Under the pieces are notes generated by a model. The model was given only the letters and a program-made list of their open reading frames with translations. It was not told the origin of the DNA and searched no databases. From a virus (Duplodnaviria; Caudoviricetes), in the IMG/VR virus record IMGVR_UViG_3300028887_000104, positions 1 to 64,000 of that record: a stretch of 64,000 nucleotides of DNA. One strand, written 5' to 3'. Below are positions 1-8,096 of the stretch, piece by piece (the first letter of the stretch is position 1; each line of letters starts with the position of its first letter). Made by a program: the position numbers and the translations under genes.

Positions 1-160
1 CTGATGGACATGCTGGATGCCAGGAATGGCGCACTGGGCCGTCGGTGGGTGCGCGGATACGGTGTGCGCAGCGTATGGTATGACGATGAATATGCATACG
101 TGAACATCTGGAACAGCTGCGATTAATTTTTTATGCTCTTCGATATTACGAAACGAGGTA

Positions 161-376
161 ATGATATTGGATATTCGGTTATATACTGGATTAATTATCC
201 GGAAAGACGGTGAGTATCTGGTCTGCCGGGATCCGTTCGGGCGTCTGAAGTGGAGCAACAGTCCATGGTCAGCATGGAGCACACGGATTATTGCAAACGC
301 ACGGTCTGTTGCTGAGAAGGTTGGCGGAGAAATTATGCTATTCAATCCGGTTGTTGGACAGGTGGCTGTGCTATGA
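161..376 (+). CDS. hypothetical phage protein
   Basis: 71-aa ORF whose stop overlaps the next ATG (ATGA). Confidence 0.6.
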   Translation: MILDIRLYTGLIIRKDGEYLVCRDPFGRLKWSNSPWSAWSTRIIANARSVAEKVGGEIMLFNPVVGQVAVL

Positions 377-573
377 GAAAGCTTACTCATCTGAGCTTAT
401 TCAGCGGTATAGGCGGACTAGATCTGGCAGCTGAAATGGCAGGCTTTGAAACAGTCGGTCAATGTGAATGGGCGGATTATCCAACCGCGATTCTTGAAAA
501 ACATTGGCCAGACGTTCCGCGTTGGCGGGATATCAGAGAACTTACAGCAGATACTTTTAAGGAGGCACAATAC

Positions 574-1041
574 ATGGCAGCGCATAGAAAAGATTATGAT
601 CAAGCCGTTGATATGTATAATGCCGGAATGTCTGTTGAAGAAATTGCTGACTACTATGGTGTAACAAGACAATCCATGTGGAAATGTTTACAGCGGCGAG
701 GAGTAAAATTCAGGGACAATAAAAAATACGGAGATCAAAATCATTTCTACAGAGGAACAAAAGCTGATGATCGTGCACAAAACATCCTTGAAGACGCAAT
801 TGAAAAAGGGATTATAAAAAGACAAGATACGTGTGAAATATGTGGCAAGTCATATAGATTCAGCAATGGCAGGACAGCAATACAAGCACATCATCCAGAT
901 TATAATCGGCCATTGGATGTAATGTGGCTGTGTCAAAAATGTCATCACGAATGGCACAAGAATAACAAGGCAAAGGAGGTGGTGCCAAATGAAGCAATGC
1001 CCTGGGCAACTGTCGATGTTCTCAGTGGAGGCTTCCCATGA
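574..1041 (+). CDS. HTH + HNH-type endonuclease nested in frame within the methyltransferase
   Basis: Own RBS AAGGAGG (559-565) and ATG 574; HTH-like VEEIADYYGVTRQSMW; CEIC and AHHPDY..WLCQKCHHEWH. Confidence 0.7.
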   Translation: MAAHRKDYDQAVDMYNAGMSVEEIADYYGVTRQSMWKCLQRRGVKFRDNKKYGDQNHFYRGTKADDRAQNILEDAIEKGIIKRQDTCEICGKSYRFSNGRTAIQAHHPDYNRPLDVMWLCQKCHHEWHKNNKAKEVVPNEAMPWATVDVLSGGFP

Positions 1042-1741
1042 CCGTGTCAGCCTTTCTCCGTTGCCGGGAAGCAAAGAGGCAAGGATGATGACCGTTACCT
1101 CTGGCCGGAAATGCTCAGAGTTATACGGGAACTCCGGCCCGCTTGGGTCATTGGTGAGAATGTGCTTGGAATCGTCAATCTGGCACTCGACACGGTGCTA
1201 TCTGACCTGGAAAACGAAGGATTTACCGCACAACCGTTTATTATTCCGGCTTGCGGTGTCGATGCCCCGCACAAGCGAGACCGAGTGTGCATTATGGCCC
1301 ACGCCAACGACAGGCGCACCATTTGTGGTTGGGAGCAGAACATACGAAGTGCTGAAACAGATGGAGCGCAAGGGCCTGATTACGGAAGAAGAGAGACGAT
1401 CGTTTGCAGCGGGAAACGGCGGGAAGACAAACCCGGAGTTCCTGGAATGGTTGATGGGTTATCAGAAAGCATTCACCGGATTGATTCCGACGCCGAGATC
1501 CAGCGAATGGAAGGGTGCGAAGCTGAACAGATTTATAGGGGGGGGGGTACTACCGACATCAGCTAATGGAACTGCTGGAATGCAGTCCCCGTGGGAGAAT
1601 TGGATGGACGAACCCGACATACCTCGAGTGGCTGACCGGGTACCCAATCGGGTGGACCGAATTAAATGCCTCGGAAATGCAGTCGTCCCGCAGCAGTTCT
1701 ACATCTTCTTTAAACTGATTCATGATATTGAAGGAGCATAA
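989..1741 (+). CDS. methyltransferase small (beta) subunit in an overlapping frame, M.EcoHK31I-like arrangement
   Basis: RBS AAGGAGG about 973; NPEFLEWLMGY motif IX-like; with G9 it would continue into NPTYLEWLTGYPIGWT. Confidence 0.7.
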   Translation: MKQCPGQLSMFSVEASHDRVSLSPLPGSKEARMMTVTSGRKCSELYGNSGPLGSLVRMCLESSIWHSTRCYLTWKTKDLPHNRLLFRLAVSMPRTSETECALWPTPTTGAPFVVGSRTYEVLKQMERKGLITEEERRSFAAGNGGKTNPEFLEWLMGYQKAFTGLIPTPRSSEWKGAKLNRFIGGGVLPTSANGTAGMQSPWENWMDEPDIPRVADRVPNRVDRIKCLGNAVVPQQFYIFFKLIHDIEGA

Positions 1742-1743
1742 TA

Positions 1744-2403
1744 ATGGCACAGAGGAGACCAGTATCGGTCGAACGATATACGAACAATGTTGATTTTATC
1801 CCTGAGTATGTCGAAGGTCCGTTTGACATTCCGTTTATCAAACCAGAACCATACGTAGAAGTTGATCAATGGCTCCCTTTTAACATGGCCGGCACAACAC
1901 AGTTTAAGCGTGAACGGCGCGGCGTGCATTTCTTTGTGCATGATTATTACTTCGAAAACATTTGGACGCGGAGAGAAAAGTACGGAGAAATGATGAAGCA
2001 ATATGGCGCTGTTCTGACTCCGGACTTCTCCCCGTTTACAGACTGGCCAGTCATGGTACAGAGATGGAATCATTACAGAAAACACGTTATCGGATCATGG
2101 TTGCAAAGCATCGGATGCCTGGTATATCCGACCGTTACATGGACAGACAAAAAGAGCTATGAGTGGTGCTTCGATGGTGAACCCTTCCGGTCTACTGTCG
2201 CTATCAGTAGCGTTGGCATGATGAAGGACAAAAAATATATCCGGATGTTCCGGGAAGGATATGACAAGATGATGGAAGTTCTGGAACCGGAGACGATTAT
2301 CCTGTACGGAAAGCTTCCGGATGGTCTGGAAGGGAACATTGTTCATGTAGAACCATTCTATAAACGATTCAAGGAGGCGAAAGATGACGATGACGATGTT
2401 TAA
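1744..2403 (+). CDS. DUF4417 family protein
   Basis: VHFFVHDY..VLTPDFS..WNHYR..PTVTW..WCFDG pattern. Confidence 0.8.
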   Translation: MAQRRPVSVERYTNNVDFIPEYVEGPFDIPFIKPEPYVEVDQWLPFNMAGTTQFKRERRGVHFFVHDYYFENIWTRREKYGEMMKQYGAVLTPDFSPFTDWPVMVQRWNHYRKHVIGSWLQSIGCLVYPTVTWTDKKSYEWCFDGEPFRSTVAISSVGMMKDKKYIRMFREGYDKMMEVLEPETIILYGKLPDGLEGNIVHVEPFYKRFKEAKDDDDDV

Positions 2404-2761
2404 TCTTCGGTTTTTCGCAAAGGGTGAGTCAGGCGGCGGTGGCGGCGGCGCAGGAGGCGGCGGAACACGCGCTGGAAGCCAGAAAACCACTAAGCAGGAA
2501 TATCACGGCAGCGCGGGTGGGTCAGGAAGTTCTACTGGAGGCTCCAGGCTTGGCAGCGGAACAAAAAGATCTGTTGGCGAAGCCGTTACTAGCGTAAGAA
2601 AGTCCGAAACATATGAGGTATACCGGATTGAAAACGGCAAAGAAGAGTATGTAAAAGACCGGGACGGCGGAACGATCCTAGAAAAGATGCGATACGACAA
2701 GAATCGTAATGCATGGATTAACAGCCAGGGCCGGAGATATGCGGTCAGGAAGAAGAAGTAA
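2384..2761 (+). CDS. Gly/Ser-rich basic protein with N-terminal FNLRFFA leader
   Basis: RBS AAGGAGG 2371; low-complexity Gly-rich N-terminus; directly follows DUF4417. Confidence 0.7.
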   Translation: MTMTMFNLRFFAKGESGGGGGGAGGGGTRAGSQKTTKQEYHGSAGGSGSSTGGSRLGSGTKRSVGEAVTSVRKSETYEVYRIENGKEEYVKDRDGGTILEKMRYDKNRNAWINSQGRRYAVRKKK

Positions 2762-3716
2762 TGCGTATCGGATTAATTGACGTAGACGCTGTAAACAACC
2801 ATGGTGCAAAGTTTCCGAACCTGGCGTTGATGCGAATATCTGCATGGCATAAGGCGAACGGAGACGAAGTCGAATGGTGGTGGACTGATTTGATTCACTA
2901 CGACATCGTGTACATGAGCAAAGTATTTTCCGATACATACAGTAAAGACATTCCGGAACCGATAAACGTTGACCAGGTTATCAAAGGTGGCACCGGGTAC
3001 GCAATTTCCACTAGGGGGGGGTAGAAGAATTCGACAAATCAAAGCATCGTGATCTTCCACATGAAATGGAAAAAATGTTTCCGGATTACAGCATTTATCC
3101 TGAATTCAGTTTTGCTATCAGTATGACCAGCAGAGGCTGTCCGCGAGGATGTTCATTCTGTCATGTGGCTGCAAAAGAAGGAAGGTGTAGTAAAAAGGTT
3201 GCTGACGTTTCAGACTTCTGGACTCCTGAAACAGGCAAAAAAGAAATTAAGATTCTGGACCCAAACATTACAGCATGCCGGGACAAACGTGACCTAATGC
3301 GGCAGTACAGAGAGACCGGATGCCTTCTGGATTTTACACAGGGACTTGATATTCGATGCCTGAATGATGACGATATTGACGACATTAATCATATGCGGAT
3401 CGGCACGCTGCATTTTGCCTGGGACAATCCGAAAGATCAGCTGGAAGAAAAATTCCGAAGGTTCGCTCAGTTGTTCAGACGAAAAAGTAATATTGGAACA
3501 GTTTATTGCCTGACGAATTATAACAGCACAATGGAAGAAAACTTGTACCGAATCTATACGCTTCGTGATATGGGATACGATCCGTACGTAATGATTTATA
3601 ACAAGCCTGCATCGCCTCAAGAGATATTGGACCTGCAACGGTGGTGCAATAACAAAATTGTGTTTAAAAAATGCAGAAGATTCGAAGATTATATACCGCA
3701 CAGGAAGGTAAAATGA
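2761..3716 (+). pseudogene. radical SAM protein, frameshifted at a G8 tract
   Basis: N-part (FPNLALMRISAWHK) ends at G8 3014-3021; G9 joins it to the part carrying CPRGCSFC (CxxxCxxC). Confidence 0.8.
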
Positions 3717-5332: not shown

Positions 5333-7403
5333 ATGATGCCTGACAGGGAGAAGGTTATCAAGGACATTGAAGAATGCTTATCTGCATCATGCAGAGGATT
5401 CAGATCGTGCCCATACAATGATGACGAATGGGACATCGTGCGTGATGCCCTTGCCCTGCTGAAAGAGCAGGAAGCGGAATGGATTTACGGTGAAGATGAA
5501 ACAGGCGTAGATGGATGGCATTGTTCATATTGTGGATTCTTTGAACCGTGGTTCTACGAATTTACTGACGATATTGATTTTATAAGGTTCTACAGTTTCT
5601 GCCCATGTTGTGGAAGAAGAATGACATCGTATACAGGAAAGCCAACGCAGGAAGGTCGGTGAAGTGGGAATGAACACGAAAAAGAAAAACGCTTTATTTG
5701 GTCGGTATCCATCATGCGATATGCTAAACAATGCGCTTCGCTTCATTCACGAAGGGAAAATAGATTGTGCTTGTGAAGAAATCGTATTCGCCATTGAGAA
5801 GGCGGGTGGATATTTCCATGAAGATGTTGTCCCAATTGTTGAAAAGGTTAAAAGCTATTGGGTGAAAACACATTCGGAAGGTCGGTGAAGCATGATGCCT
5901 GACAGGGAGAAGGTTATCAAGGGGCTGGAGTGCCATGCTGAAGTGAATTGTGTTGAATGTCCATACAGGGACGGGTGGCGTACTTGCCCGTTTGGCGAAA
6001 CACTACTTGCTGATGCCCTTACCCTGCTGAAAGAGCAGGAAGCGGTTGTCAGGTGCAAAGATTGTAAGCACTATAGAATCAACACAGTTTATCCGGGTAC
6101 AAACATGATAATGACATATTGTGCGAAAACAGGAATTGCAGAGATAAAACCGGATTGGTTCTGTGCTGATGGGGGGGGGAACGATAATGACAAAGAAAGA
6201 GGCGTATCAGGCACTTGAGGAGCAGTTAAATGATTTTTTGCGGTACGGAAACAAAATCAAGATTTCAGCAGATTTCATCTATGAATTGCTTCCGATCCTG
6301 AGACAGCCTGATATCGTCAGGTGCAATCAATGCAAGCACATTGAAACGTGTTGCAGGAGAAGGACGAACGACCCCAACTGGTTCTGTGCTGACGGTGAGC
6401 TAAAATACTGATTCGACAAATAGAAGTATTGCGAAGCAAAGTAGGTGATGTAATGGACGATTGCCGTTTCTGTAAATCACTGGAATTTAAGAAAGAACTG
6501 AATGCAAGACGCACAGAATTAGACAAACAATTGTTCAAAGTGAAATATACTGTTGCGCTTGTAGACAGGACATTAGGTCCGTATGGGAAATGCGGAAGGA
6601 CAACGGATTATGGTTTCAGAGGATGTGGATATCCGCTGAAATATTGCCCAATGTGTGGGAAGAAGATAACTGGAAAGTCGGTGAAGTGAATGAATGCAGT
6701 AATTTACTTGGATGTACCTGGCTGGCAGATTGGACAGGACGTTACAGTTTATTTCCCAGACACAATGGTGAAACGTGGCAAGTGTGAACTGCTGCAAGAG
6801 CATGACGATTGCGAAAACTGTGCTATTGCTATTGAAGACAGGCAACCTGTTGTCCGGTGCAAGGATTGCAAACATGGGCAATACGAAGAATGGGATAACG
6901 GGGAGTGCATTGACAAGACTGTTTATTGTGATGGATATGGTATTCACAAACCGGATTGGTTCTGTGGTGACGGTGATCGCAAGGAAGGTCGGTGAAGTGA
7001 ATGATAAGGATAGAGATTGAAATGGACAAGCCAAAGGAATGTCATGAATGTCCGTTTCAGTTGAAATTCAAGGATGATACCGTTGATGATTGGTATATGC
7101 GTCGGTGCGTGATAATCAATCAGATAATAGAATATCCTTTACCAGATTGGTGCCCGATAAAAGCAATAAATCAGACTTAAAGTCAACTTTGAATAAGGAG
7201 CGTACTGCATGGATATACGGAAAGACGTGCCGGGTCTTTGGTGCGATGACATCACGTTTTGTCAGGAAACTTGTGAACGCATGGATTGTCCACGAAATAA
7301 ACATCATATTCGTGACAGGAGTGTGCCACATTCGTTTTCAATAGAAAGACCGTCAGATTGTCCAAAGGAAGTTGATGAAATAATTCGGGAGGAACAACAA
7401 TGA
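5333..7403 (+). CDS. array of small Cys-rich paralogous ORFs (5333-5662, 5664-5888, 5892-6218, 6196-6411, 6429-6689, 6690-6995, 7001-7180, 7209-7403)
   Basis: Shared modules MMPDREKVIK, DAL.LLKEQEA, VRC..CKH, P.WFC.DG; 7001-7180 read manually (59 aa). Confidence 0.6.
5650..7004 (+). repeat. gene-junction repeat GGAA(G/A)GTCGGTGAAG x4
   Basis: Copies at 5650, 5876, 6672, 6983, each spanning a stop and preceding the next start. Confidence 0.85.
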
Positions 7404-7610: not shown

Positions 7611-8096
7611 ATGTTAGAAATTAGACCTATTAAGCTTCGTGATGCAAACCGATACGTATATGAACATCACCGGCATAACATGCCTACGAACGGACATAAG
7701 TATTCCGTTGCCTGTTACGACACAGGGGGGGGCGAAGCTCAACTTGTCGGTGTCGCAATTGCCGGACAGCCTGTAGCACGGAACCTGGATGACGGTCTGA
7801 CTATAGAGATCCGACGTGTATGCACGGATGGCACATATAATGCATGTTCGATTTTGTATGGTGCCTGCTGCCGTGTTGCAAAAGCAATGGGGTACAAACG
7901 CGTTGTAACATATACGTTAAAAACTGAACCAGGAACCAGCCTGAAGGCTTCCGGATTCATTATGGACGGAGAAACAGCAGGTGATACATGGGACAGGCCT
8001 GGACGACCACGGGAAATCACACAGATGACGCTGTTCGGAGAAGAACAAAAGTATCCGACGGAAAAGAAAATCAGATGGATTAGGCTTTTTTCTTAG
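7611..8096 (+). CDS. XF1762-family (Mom-like GNAT) protein
   Basis: HHRHN..GHKYS..LVGVAIAGQPVAR.LDDG.TIEIRRVCTDGT.NACS.LYGA motif. Confidence 0.8.
   Translation: MLEIRPIKLRDANRYVYEHHRHNMPTNGHKYSVACYDTGGGEAQLVGVAIAGQPVARNLDDGLTIEIRRVCTDGTYNACSILYGACCRVAKAMGYKRVVTYTLKTEPGTSLKASGFIMDGETAGDTWDRPGRPREITQMTLFGEEQKYPTEKKIRWIRLFS

Follow-up and report, generated by a model that had tools for sequence, protein, structure and literature searches.

An In-Frame Stop Codon in the Catalytic Motif of a Phage Methyltransferase Gene

How can a cytosine methyltransferase gene persist in phages when a stop codon lies one codon before its catalytic cysteine? We addressed this question at a locus of the IMG/VR record IMGVR_UViG_3300028887_000104 (Duplodnaviria; Caudoviricetes), of which positions 1 to 64,000 were analyzed; this whole stretch of 64,000 nucleotides is called the window below, and the coordinates of its features are collected in table 1. 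The original prediction for this locus, made from the letters alone, had read the catalytic motif as GGF-P-stop-P-CQPF and had proposed that a peptidyl-tRNA-Pro hops from CCA over UGA to CCG, with a plain inactivating duplication as an equal possibility. Direct reading of 1030-1056 confirmed the motif: the codons are GGC TTC CCA TGA CCG TGT CAG CCT TTC (G F P stop P C Q P F) in frame 1, which is also the frame of the C5-methyltransferase ORF 373..1041, and the catalytic Cys codon occupies 1045-1047. The degenerate pattern GGNTTYCCNTRRYYNTGYCARCCNTT matched the window once, compared with 0.00 matches expected from 100 shuffles. It had further been claimed that no start codon lies between the stop and the catalytic Cys, and this held, as the earliest in-frame ATG, GTG, or TTG 3' of the TGA is the ATG at 1111, downstream of the Cys codon. 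Frame 1 is open from 1042 to 1566, and this open stretch gave the second PF00145 (DNA_methylase) match of table 1.

Motifs I, IV (PCQ), VI (ENV), VIII (RxR), and X (GNAV) of C5 cytosine methyltransferases are all present in the gene of the window, and they are split between two frames: motifs I-VIII are encoded in frame 1, interrupted by the stop, and motifs IX-X in frame 2, past a G10 tract. The 5' part of this catalytic (alpha) frame also matched phrog_363 DNA methyltransferase (E 1.4e-23). The nested beta frame stays open over the six extra nucleotides, as had been predicted, since the frame-2 ORF 989..1741 spans the site; as assembled, this ORF continues into the alpha tail (motifs IX-X). 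An annotated "internal gene" of Paenibacillus phage Diva is a homologue of the beta ORF. At the site of the G10 tract, the relatives L014 and L017 have G8. The G10 tract truncates alpha in the window even if the hop occurs, and it leaves unsettled whether the gene of the window alone is a pseudogene.

By its sequence features, the host gene was classified as a putative nested alpha/beta (M.EcoHK31I-like) phage C5 cytosine methyltransferase, a family for which there are no biochemical data. The likeness to M.EcoHK31I (PMC2836561), which concerns the host gene and not the insert, is that alpha has a further ORF (beta) nested within it in a different frame and itself carries the catalytic motifs; the window differs in that its beta begins upstream of motif IV. 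An open beta frame of 450 nt or more was present in 60 of 62 loci with the insert. In the overlap with motifs IV-VI, the conservation of beta was 57%, compared with 55% for the third frame; thus, beta was no better conserved.

Table 1. Features of the interrupted methyltransferase gene and its HNH cassette in the window
Feature	Position	Strand	Evidence or remark
5' part of C5 cytosine methyltransferase alpha frame, motif I FSGIGG to about motif III	373..573	+	PF00145 residues 5-64, E 3.8e-08
Mobile HNH cassette (putative)	about 534..1041	+	About 508 nt in place of about 73 nt of the uninterrupted relative
Shine-Dalgarno AAGGAGG of the nested HNH ORF	559..565	+	Read from the sequence; 8 nt 5' of ATG 574
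HTH and putative HNH endonuclease ORF, in frame with the methyltransferase, stopping at the TGA of the insert	574..1041	+	HTH_7 E 9.3e-08
Nested +1-frame (beta) ORF, with its own Shine-Dalgarno GGAGG at 975-979	989..1741	+	phrog_1008, E 8.9e-26
First half of motif IV (A T V D V L S G G F P) as supplied by the cassette in place of the original	1006..1038	+	Without blastn homology to canonical L190, yet encoding the canonical residues
Proposed take-off codon CCA (Pro)	1036..1038	+	CCN in all 100 distinct insert-bearing contexts
Six-base coding gap: stop TGA and proposed landing codon CCG	1039..1044	+	Always stop + YYN in methyltransferase context
Alpha motifs IV (catalytic Cys 1045-1047) to VIII	1045..1311	+	PF00145 profile 70-169, E 5.9e-22
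G10 tract	1538..1547	+	Puts the tails of alpha and of beta into the wrong frame; a G9 tract would correct both
C-terminal end of alpha with motifs IX-X (RIKCLGNAVVP), in frame 2 here	1548..1741	+	Residues 192-248 of the frame-2 ORF matched by phrog_363 and phrog_32758

The Six-Base Insert Is Recurrent and Constrained

Scans of viral, genome, and metagenome contigs, in which the genome and metagenome collections were searched with CCN landing codons only, recovered 136 loci, representing 100 distinct contexts, in which motif IV has exactly six additional bases between its Pro and Cys codons. In methyltransferase context, the first inserted codon was always a stop (TGA, TAG, or TAA); when any triplet (NNN) was allowed at this position, sense codons appeared only in chance matches in unrelated non-methylase DNA. 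The second inserted codon was always YYN, namely CCN, CTR, TCR, or TTA, the non-CCN codons being all YYR. A 3-nt version consisting of the stop alone (GFP-stop-CQPF) gave just three chance matches. The stop followed immediately on the proposed take-off codon, as CCA TGA in the window and as CCN plus stop throughout the distinct contexts, and the sole methyltransferase exception to a CCN take-off was L306, with CAT (GFH-stop-PCQPF). Moreover, the +1-slippery take-off codon CCC was rare in insert-bearing loci (3/96), compared with 45/109 (41%) in canonical ones.

The residue preceding the catalytic Cys was Pro in all 114 canonical contigs, whereas the codon in this place was non-Pro (Leu CTR/TTA or Ser TCR) in 32 of the 54 stop-bearing viral contigs. 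Matched codons flanking the stop, which the original prediction had stressed, are thus present in the window (CCA and CCG) but are not required, as relatives have CTR, TCR, or TTA at the landing position. The stop itself differed among near kin (TGA in the window and TAA in L014; TAA in L113 and TGA in L155). On the tree of the cassette side, the stop type changed at least 22 times and never to a sense codon; these counts were taken from the cassette side and the downstream-gene tree was set aside for them, because the cassette moves between backgrounds. The class of the landing codon changed at least 15 times on the tree, with no change of the transversion type. Landing codons of the form YYN are pairable with an xGG anticodon by Watson-Crick or G.U pairing, and the beta frame cannot explain the C/T-only pattern, since position 2 of the landing codon is a four-fold degenerate third position in beta. 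The YYN rule is suggestive but no proof, as mutations are most commonly C-to-T transitions.

The Insert Marks the Edge of an HNH Cassette

A search for the P-stop-P pattern in HNH-containing homologues, proposed with the original prediction as a check, was positive on a large scale: an HNH gene was found inside or just upstream of the methyltransferase gene in 41 of 56 insert-bearing loci, compared with 1 of 68 canonical relatives. A nuclease was undetectable in 15 of the 56, and a Pfam search upstream of the HNH-less insert-bearing loci found no other nuclease families. Four HNH types were distinguished among these loci, with an HTH module common to types A and B. In the window, the HNH ORF matched phrog_2340 endonuclease (2.7e-19) and phrog_8446 HNH endonuclease (3.7e-15) and contains a CxxC..HH..N..CxxCH motif, with no match to Pfam HNH models; the HNH-B of relatives matched PF13392 at 1.8e-16. 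The TGA of the insert terminates this nested ORF, as was also predicted, and in HNH-A loci such as this one the motif-IV stop thus doubles as the stop of the HNH ORF. The nuclease of HNH-B loci terminates at a separate stop about 240 nt upstream, and the motif-IV stop is conserved nonetheless.

To locate the borders of the cassette, homology to uninterrupted relatives was traced. Blastn of the window against canonical L190 detected homology at -625..-496 and +12..+690 relative to 1030 and none between, and the HNH-less relatives L003 and L190 have GGFPCQPFS. Two other relatives, L159 and L252, were 96% identical from -12 to +767, with a break of homology upstream. In both comparisons (window vs. 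L190, break 534-1041, and L159 vs. L252) the breakpoints are sharp at the insert, which forms the 3' boundary of a mobile HNH cassette, a connection that the original prediction had not made. At least 29 changes between the insert-bearing and the canonical state on the downstream-gene tree indicated that the cassette moves between gene backgrounds. No cultured phage with the insert was found by tblastn of cassette parts against 50,697 phage records, in which the matches were confined to canonical genes of a Porphyromonas phage and free HNH genes of Vibrio phages.

Purifying Selection Downstream of the Stop

If the stop simply inactivated the gene, the sequence behind it should decay, and we examined the alpha frame from this point of view. 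Alpha was open from the Cys to motif X in 56 of 65 insert-bearing loci, compared with 69 of 72 canonical ones; a few insert-bearing loci were decayed or truncated (L136, L013, L016, and L173). In 19 non-overlapping pairs of close insert-bearing relatives, we counted 92 synonymous versus 32 non-synonymous codon differences, and 67% of the differences lay at alpha third positions. As alpha third positions are beta second positions, the constraint is therefore on alpha and not on beta. Over the 44 codons past the Cys, the differences were distributed over codon positions 1/2/3 as 27/18/55% in insert-bearing and 29/18/52% in canonical genes. In insert-bearing relatives, purifying selection was shown to act on the alpha frame 3' of the stop, and the relaxed constraint of a pseudogene was not seen downstream of the insert across them. 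Part of the diversity 3' of the stop is older than each invasion, the cassette being mobile between backgrounds. The plain inactivating duplication thus fits poorly, both with this selection and with repeated changes of stop type that never produced a sense codon.

Alternative Explanations

Several simple readings of the site were rejected. An intein would need a Cys/Ser start and a His-Asn end, which are lacking; a -1 frameshift at TTC CCN stop leads into a short dead end, and a +1 frameshift there would need CCC, the depleted codon. Entry into alpha from the beta start was discarded, as the stop and the Cys codon lie too close together for it. Alternative genetic codes (codes 4, 15, and 25) were excluded because TGA ends 31 of the 61 ORFs of at least 150 aa in the window (TAA 28, TAG 2) and because close relatives between them use each of the three stops at the site. 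No group I/II intron, ribozyme, or other RNA family of Rfam was matched in 1-3000 at E up to 1, and no tRNA gene, hence no suppressor tRNA, was found in the window.

Among the explanations that do without a hop, we regard as unlikely, and still as a serious possibility, a selfish disruption without rescue, in which the 6-nt insert shields the cassette from the nuclease that it encodes and merely abolishes the alpha chain. Selection would then keep the stop as the end of the HNH or N-fragment ORF, or to avoid a full-length enzyme that is toxic and has a deformed catalytic loop, and the downstream frame would only look intact because of recent invasions and the beta overlap. The stop does serve the HNH ORF in HNH-A loci such as the window, but in HNH-B loci, where the nuclease has already ended, it is conserved all the same. 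Similarly, the alpha of the window is broken by the G10 tract as well and some other loci are decayed or truncated, as a dead gene would allow, yet alpha extends to motif X in most loci, and the excess of synonymous differences at alpha third positions points to constraint on alpha. Horizontal movement of the cassette, evident from the mosaics and from the state changes on the downstream-gene tree, agrees with this explanation; the depletion of CCC at take-off and the limitation of the next codon to YYN do not, as a dead gene would bring about neither. An assembly artefact, or a stop that is a sense codon in the phage or its host, is hardly credible. The sequence was assembled from a metagenome and has several poly-G tracts that are out of frame, but there is no homopolymer at the insert, and the same insert was found in more than 100 independent assemblies; furthermore, close relatives bear different stops, TGA and TAA are normal stops of the window's own genes, and a suppressor tRNA gene is absent from the window.

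Two further explanations would yield an active enzyme without a hop. Readthrough by a near-cognate tRNA would give an enzyme carrying two additional residues (GFP-X-P/L/S-CQPF), made in deliberately small amounts. Termination is leaky at a stop that has Pro before it and C after it, and the exceptional L306 retains Pro-Cys only if its stop is read through. Even with a proline effect of this kind documented (PMC3985003), we hold readthrough to be very improbable: Leu or Ser would precede the catalytic Cys in most stop-bearing viral contigs, in the place where canonical enzymes have only Pro; the stop was never swapped for a sense codon, though the yield would rise; the three stops, all used, would insert different residues; and the 3-nt, stop-only version is nonexistent. 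Another route past the stop, by re-initiation without a canonical start, as a two-chain enzyme cut in motif IV, or through an unknown RNA-level removal, has precedents in the homing-endonuclease insertions of T4-type phages, which often split genes into two assembling chains (bioRxiv 10.1101/2022.08.31.505936), and in split C5 methyltransferases, which can function (PMC2836561). It nevertheless appears improbable, as no ATG, GTG, or TTG separates the stop from the Cys in the window, the stop is followed family-wide by CCN, CTR, TCR, or TTA, and intron and ribozyme families are unmatched in 1-3000.

A Proposed Stop-Hop and Self-Immunity Mechanism

The explanation that we favor, with slightly better than even confidence, is a homing-endonuclease self-immunity insert that is decoded by a +6 hop of peptidyl-tRNA-Pro; both the hop and the nuclease target are inferred, and the support is comparative only. 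For the fuller proposal, a natural and selected stop-hop onto any YYN that restores Pro-Cys, at a site that is the self-immunity half of HNH cassettes spread through many phage methylase lineages, we consider the chances to be even. A conserved element, a selected stop, a constrained downstream frame, and a bounded HNH-linked cassette were observed, and from these the hop is inferred. The hop from CCA over UGA to CCG, as originally predicted, thus gained support from the recurrence of the insert, the conservation of the stop, and the selection behind it, but hopping itself has not been demonstrated.

In the proposed sequence of events, an HNH cassette (about 534-1041) would have invaded a phage C5 cytosine methyltransferase gene, supplying its own gene segment up to G-G-F-P and then a stop directly before the Pro-Cys codons of the recipient, so that six extra bases (stop + YYN) would come to lie within the most conserved DNA of the gene. 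These bases would destroy the target of the cassette's own nuclease and make the carrier allele immune, comparable to the 50-nt insert for MobA in T4 gene 60. During translation, a ribosome at CCA would have peptidyl-tRNA-Pro in the P site, while its A site would contain the stop with a C next to it; each of these is a poor context for termination. A fraction of the ribosomes would slide 6 nt, the tRNA would re-pair with the cognate or pairable landing codon (CCG here, YYN family-wide), and decoding would restart at the next codon, that of the catalytic Cys, giving canonical GGFPCQPFS. Ribosomes that do not hop would terminate, which in the window would also be the end of the HNH protein. A hop would give a tryptic junction peptide ending SGGFPCQPFSVAGK, and two extra residues in it would mean readthrough.

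Synthetic stop-hops in E. coli occur at about the per-cent level, and a hop at that level may be too low for a protective methylase. A hop-specific SD-like stimulator was absent, the upstream GGAGG being as frequent in insert-bearing (45/99) as in canonical genes (34/75; 45% in both), and no consensus RNA structure was found around the site (RNAalifold, energy -0.1). A Pro before the stop makes termination inefficient (PMC3985003), and tRNA-Pro(UGG) is reported to be frameshift-prone (PMC4519876).

Relation to Known Systems and Significance

For bacteria and their phages, T4 gene 60 was long, to our knowledge, the sole well-studied case of a utilised bypass. Together with the MobA HNH homing-endonuclease element, it provides a precedent for the cassette (bioRxiv 10.1101/2022.08.31.505936), and its insert protects against the nuclease of the element, as Bonocora et al. 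2011 are summarized in that preprint. In both systems, a conserved phage gene has an HNH endonuclease gene within or next to it, a highly conserved stretch has received replacement coding sequence along with a short non-coding insert from the cassette, and a stop directly follows the take-off codon. The differences are that the gap is 6 nt here and 50 nt there, that a take-off stem-loop was undetected here, that the tRNA is Pro here and Gly there, with a landing codon that may here be a G.U near-match, and that the host gene is a C5 methyltransferase, associated with several unrelated HNH types and not split into two ORFs with separate starts. By this analogy, if the self-immunity and hop interpretation holds, the insert would be a miniature of the gene 60/MobA cassette.

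In-frame stop-hopping of this geometry has been constructed artificially: synthetic stop-hops function in E. coli, and, as far as PMC5009743 relates the work of Weiss et al. 1987, matched codons flank a single stop and nine nucleotides are decoded as one amino acid. No natural case was known as of that 2016 review (PMC5009743). The present sites differ from the synthetic ones in being natural, conserved in about 100 distinct genes, and located within a catalytic motif.

If no hop occurs, the data still document an HNH cassette that is widespread and has a scar of 6 nt under striking constraint. If a natural 6-nt hop does occur, the roughly 100 variants would constitute a ready mutational series for the take-off codon, for pairing at the landing codon, G.U pairs at its positions 1 and 2 included, and for competition with the release factor. 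It would also follow that gene callers wrongly split or discard such methylase genes, that homing endonucleases can colonise catalytic-motif DNA without a protein cost, and that termination efficiency could tune phage methylation, and hence the evasion of restriction.

Organization of the methyltransferase locus

The window covers the leftmost 64,000 nt of a 77.7-kb IMG/VR phage record. Its C5 cytosine methyltransferase frame (alpha, frame 1) remains stop-free from ~534 onward through an HTH and putative HNH endonuclease, resumes methyltransferase sequence after the HNH part (A T V D V L S G G F P) and then meets a TGA at 1039-1041 (see table). The original prediction had read this motif IV, canonically GGFPCQPFS, as GGF-P-stop-P-CQPF, and GFP, the TGA and P C Q P F indeed follow one another in the same frame. 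Its statement that no start codon precedes the catalytic Cys also held: between the TGA and the Cys codon (1045-1047) there is no ATG, GTG or TTG, the first being ATG 1111. As it had further claimed, the nested +1-frame ORF (beta) is open across the site, and the TGA closes the HNH frame begun at ATG 574. Among ORFs of 150 aa or more in the window, ordinary stops comprise 31 TGA, 28 TAA and 2 TAG, and no tRNA gene was found in it.

Features of the methyltransferase locus and of related loci
Feature	Position	Details
Alpha 5' part, C5 cytosine methyltransferase	frame 1, from ATG 373	motif I FSGIGG; PF00145, E 3.8e-08
HTH + putative HNH endonuclease ORF	from ATG 574	Shine-Dalgarno AAGGAGG 559-565; HTH_7, 9.3e-08; PHROG HNH-endonuclease families, 1e-15 to 1e-19; CxxC..HH..N..CxxCH motif; no match to Pfam HNH models
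Alpha motifs IV to VIII	same frame, past the TGA	P C Q P F S V A G K ...; PF00145 profile 70-169, E 5.9e-22
Beta ORF	989..1741, +1 frame	Shine-Dalgarno GGAGG 975-979; overlaps HNH 3' end, proposed hop site and alpha
G10 tract	1538-1547	displaces tails of both alpha and beta from frame
Further poly-G tracts within ~6 kb of G10	3014-3021 (G8), 6171-6179 (G9), 7725-7732 (G8)	
Recipient remnant, L159	-1248..-1125	relative to motif IV Gly codon
Recipient remnant, L005	-1217..-689	relative to motif IV Gly codon

The nested beta gene is of a kind known from M.EcoHK31I (PMC2836561), and its counterpart in Paenibacillus phage Diva is annotated as an 'internal gene'. In the motif IV-VI overlap, amino acid identity between relatives was 57% for beta, 55% for the unused +2 frame and 79% for alpha. 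Beta's N-terminal portion may amount to hardly more than a run-up to its WPTP/EWLMGFP region.

A G9 in place of the G10 tract would link alpha to motifs IX-X (RIKCLGNAVVP, presently in frame 2) and beta to its own C-terminus, the NPTYLEWLTGYPIGWTEL end (presently in frame 3). At this site the tract is G8 in the two nearest relatives, L014 and L017, and also in L097 and L152, so that the in-frame G9 lies between the two lengths, one step from each; in L185, a G7 tract stands in another context. As assembled, the enzyme of the window would be truncated even if the hop occurs. In the absence of read data, the G10 may stem from phase variation, slippage during expression or homopolymer error, and the three further tracts could be due to homopolymer error of a systematic kind or to slippage as a biological mechanism.

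Recurrence and codon rules of the six-nucleotide insert

Viral contigs were first scanned with a degenerate DNA pattern for G-F-P-stop/Trp-P-C-Q-P-F, which matched 22 contigs, with a stop in 22/22 and TGG in none; opening the stop position to NNN returned the same 22. In species-representative genomes and metagenomes, where the NNN pattern also catches chance matches in unrelated DNA, every match in a methyltransferase context had a stop (78 distinct contexts; TGA 34, TAG 30, TAA 14). Leaving the codon after the stop free added 31 viral contigs in methyltransferase context, carrying Leu (CTA, CTG, TTA) or Ser (TCA, TCG) there; when the codon before the stop was left open, a single methyltransferase, L306, was gained. 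The combination of NNN at the stop with YYR next gave only two new matches, both due to chance, as were all three matches to a 3-nt version of the insert (GFP-stop-CQPF). In total, 136 loci in 100 distinct contexts share the design CCN, stop, YYN, Cys codon; the insert is nevertheless rare, since 76 of the 78 close relatives retrieved by protein similarity are canonical, that is, without it.

L306 (IMGVR_UViG_3300032294_001820), in which motif IV reads G F H stop P C Q P F (CAT TAA CCA), is the sole exception to a Pro take-off codon in methyltransferase context; in L090, a close relative, the corresponding codons are CCT TAG CCA. L306 could represent a dead allele, an error, or an allele functioning by readthrough.

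On a cassette-side tree built from the 80 residues upstream of the stop, the stop type changed at least 22 times and a sense codon was never seen, not even TGG, which is equally acceptable to the overlapping beta frame. As far as sequence comparison can tell, the stop in the motif IV insert is under selection. The codon preceding Cys was non-Pro in 32/54 stop-bearing viral contigs, as opposed to Pro in 114/114 sampled canonical contigs, and the amino acid constraint at this codon is inferred to be lost in hop alleles. The landing codons (CCN 79, CTR 15, TCR 5, TTA 1) are all YYN, with A or G always as the third base of the non-CCN ones, and the set is precisely that to which an xGG anticodon can pair, allowing Watson-Crick and G.U pairs. 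The class of landing codon changed at least 15 times on the tree, each time C/T. In the beta frame, the middle base of this codon falls on a four-fold degenerate third position, and thus A or G there is not barred by beta. Because C-to-T is also the commonest mutation, the YYN restriction is suggestive rather than proof of tRNA pairing. At the take-off position, CCC occurred in 3/96 hop contexts compared with 45/109 canonical ones; CCC preceding a U-starting stop is a classic +1-slippery site for tRNA-Pro.

Association with a mobile HNH cassette

Profiles from four HNH types at these loci were searched against all six-frame ORFs. An HNH gene lay within the methyltransferase 5' part or <=1.5 kb upstream in 41/56 hop loci compared with 1/68 canonical relatives (Fisher p ~5e-19; the samples are not phylogenetically independent). 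The P-stop-P pattern that the original prediction had suggested seeking in HNH-containing homologues was thus found. Type A, the window's kind, is an in-frame insertion between motifs III and IV, and type B is a free gene immediately upstream, followed by a replacement 5' exon (PF13392 HNH_3, 1.8e-16). At the N-terminus, the two types carry homologous HTH modules (38% identity, 79 residues, E 2e-12; window 574-720 and L021 4996-5140), which suggests a common DNA target. Their nuclease domains are unrelated, and the arrangement looks like an exchanged nuclease module on a common DNA-binding module.

Comparison of hop and canonical alleles located the cassette boundaries. The hop-bearing L159 and canonical L252 share 96% identity over a stretch that begins 12 nt ahead of the Gly-Phe codons and runs to the gene end, and ~1.1 kb upstream of this, containing HNH-B and the replacement exon, is unrelated; what is left of the recipient's motif I is found still further upstream in L159. 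Homology between the window and canonical L190 extends to ~534 and restarts exactly at 1042, the landing codon, and both L190 and L003 (MT838482) lack the HNH gene as well as the six bases. From these breakpoints, we concluded that the cassette supplies the take-off Pro codon together with the stop, and that the landing codon is the Pro codon originally present in the recipient. In HNH-B type cassettes, a remnant of the start of the recipient methyltransferase (MTHASLFSGIGG...) persists upstream of the nuclease gene, and motif I is therefore represented twice at such loci; L005 has no HNH gene, and its remnant is joined to sequence of other origin.

The tree of the downstream part required at least 29 hop/canonical interchanges, as would be expected for a cassette moving between backgrounds. 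No nuclease could be recognised at 15 of the hop loci, and L074 (Ga0131853_10036947), an HNH-less member of the window's gene family, retains CCA TGA CCA in motif IV and may be an 'orphan' immune allele; its methyltransferase lies directly 3' of a Dam-like methylase gene. In L076 (-803..+916 relative to motif IV), an HNH-like ORF stays open across the stop in another frame for ~900 nt further, and appears to be fused to the beta frame, not alpha.

Constraint on alpha downstream of the stop and alternative explanations

Alpha is open to motif X in 56/65 hop loci (median 243 codons past the stop) and 69/72 canonical ones. Over the 44 codons after Cys, differences fell on codon positions 1/2/3 at 27/18/55% in hop alleles and 29/18/52% in canonical ones. 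Among 19 non-overlapping pairs of close hop-bearing relatives, 92 synonymous and 32 non-synonymous codon differences were counted, with 67% of differences at third positions; because alpha third positions are beta second positions, the constraint lies on alpha. The alpha frame past the stop is, on this evidence, inferred to remain under selection. In L013, L016 and L173, as in canonical L217, L230 and L257, alpha ends soon after motif VIII, which looks like motifs IX-X on a second chain rather than decay.

A selfish disruption in which alpha is never rescued would be consistent with the horizontal spread; we consider it unlikely, since it is at odds with the synonymous-biased divergence among hop-bearing relatives, gives no account of why HNH-B loci, whose nuclease gene ends at a separate stop, keep this one, and leaves the take-off and landing codon rules unexplained. 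The downstream alpha stretch has no start codon of its own, and therefore ribosomes must enter across the stop; with no start codon present, re-initiation or a two-chain enzyme is improbable. Entry by readthrough would place Leu or Ser before the catalytic Cys, which is never so in canonical enzymes, and does not account for a stop that never turns into a sense codon, so that we give it very little credence. An artefact or another genetic code can be set aside almost entirely, as independent assemblies repeat the insert and close relatives carry different stops.

A proposed stop-hop and its precedents

We infer instead that peptidyl-tRNA-Pro would hop +6 over the stop, restoring GGFPCQPFS; in the window, terminating ribosomes would also end the HNH protein. 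The hop itself is unproven, and its efficiency was not determined. The weakest termination context in E. coli is a C following the stop. Such a C follows the TGA here, and the context of the site favours termination escape. Final-residue Pro impairs release (PMC3985003), and tRNA-Pro(UGG) is noted for slipping (PMC4519876). As for an extra stimulator, an upstream GGAGG was equally frequent in canonical genes, and no consensus RNA structure was found at the site.

Full-text literature searches returned no stop within motif IV of C5 methyltransferases and no natural stop-hop, for which 'no occurrences are known' according to a 2016 review (PMC5009743); the synthetic 'stop-hops' of Weiss et al. 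have the same geometry as the six-base gap. The closest precedent is T4 gene 60, in which an insert brought into conserved topoisomerase DNA by the HNH element MobA prevents nicking by MobA and is bypassed by ribosomes whose take-off codon has a stop after it (bioRxiv 10.1101/2022.08.31.505936); the gap is 50 nt there, compared with six bases here. Provided that the still unproven hop takes place, the element would be a known combination, a bypass insert with a homing endonuclease, in a new form.
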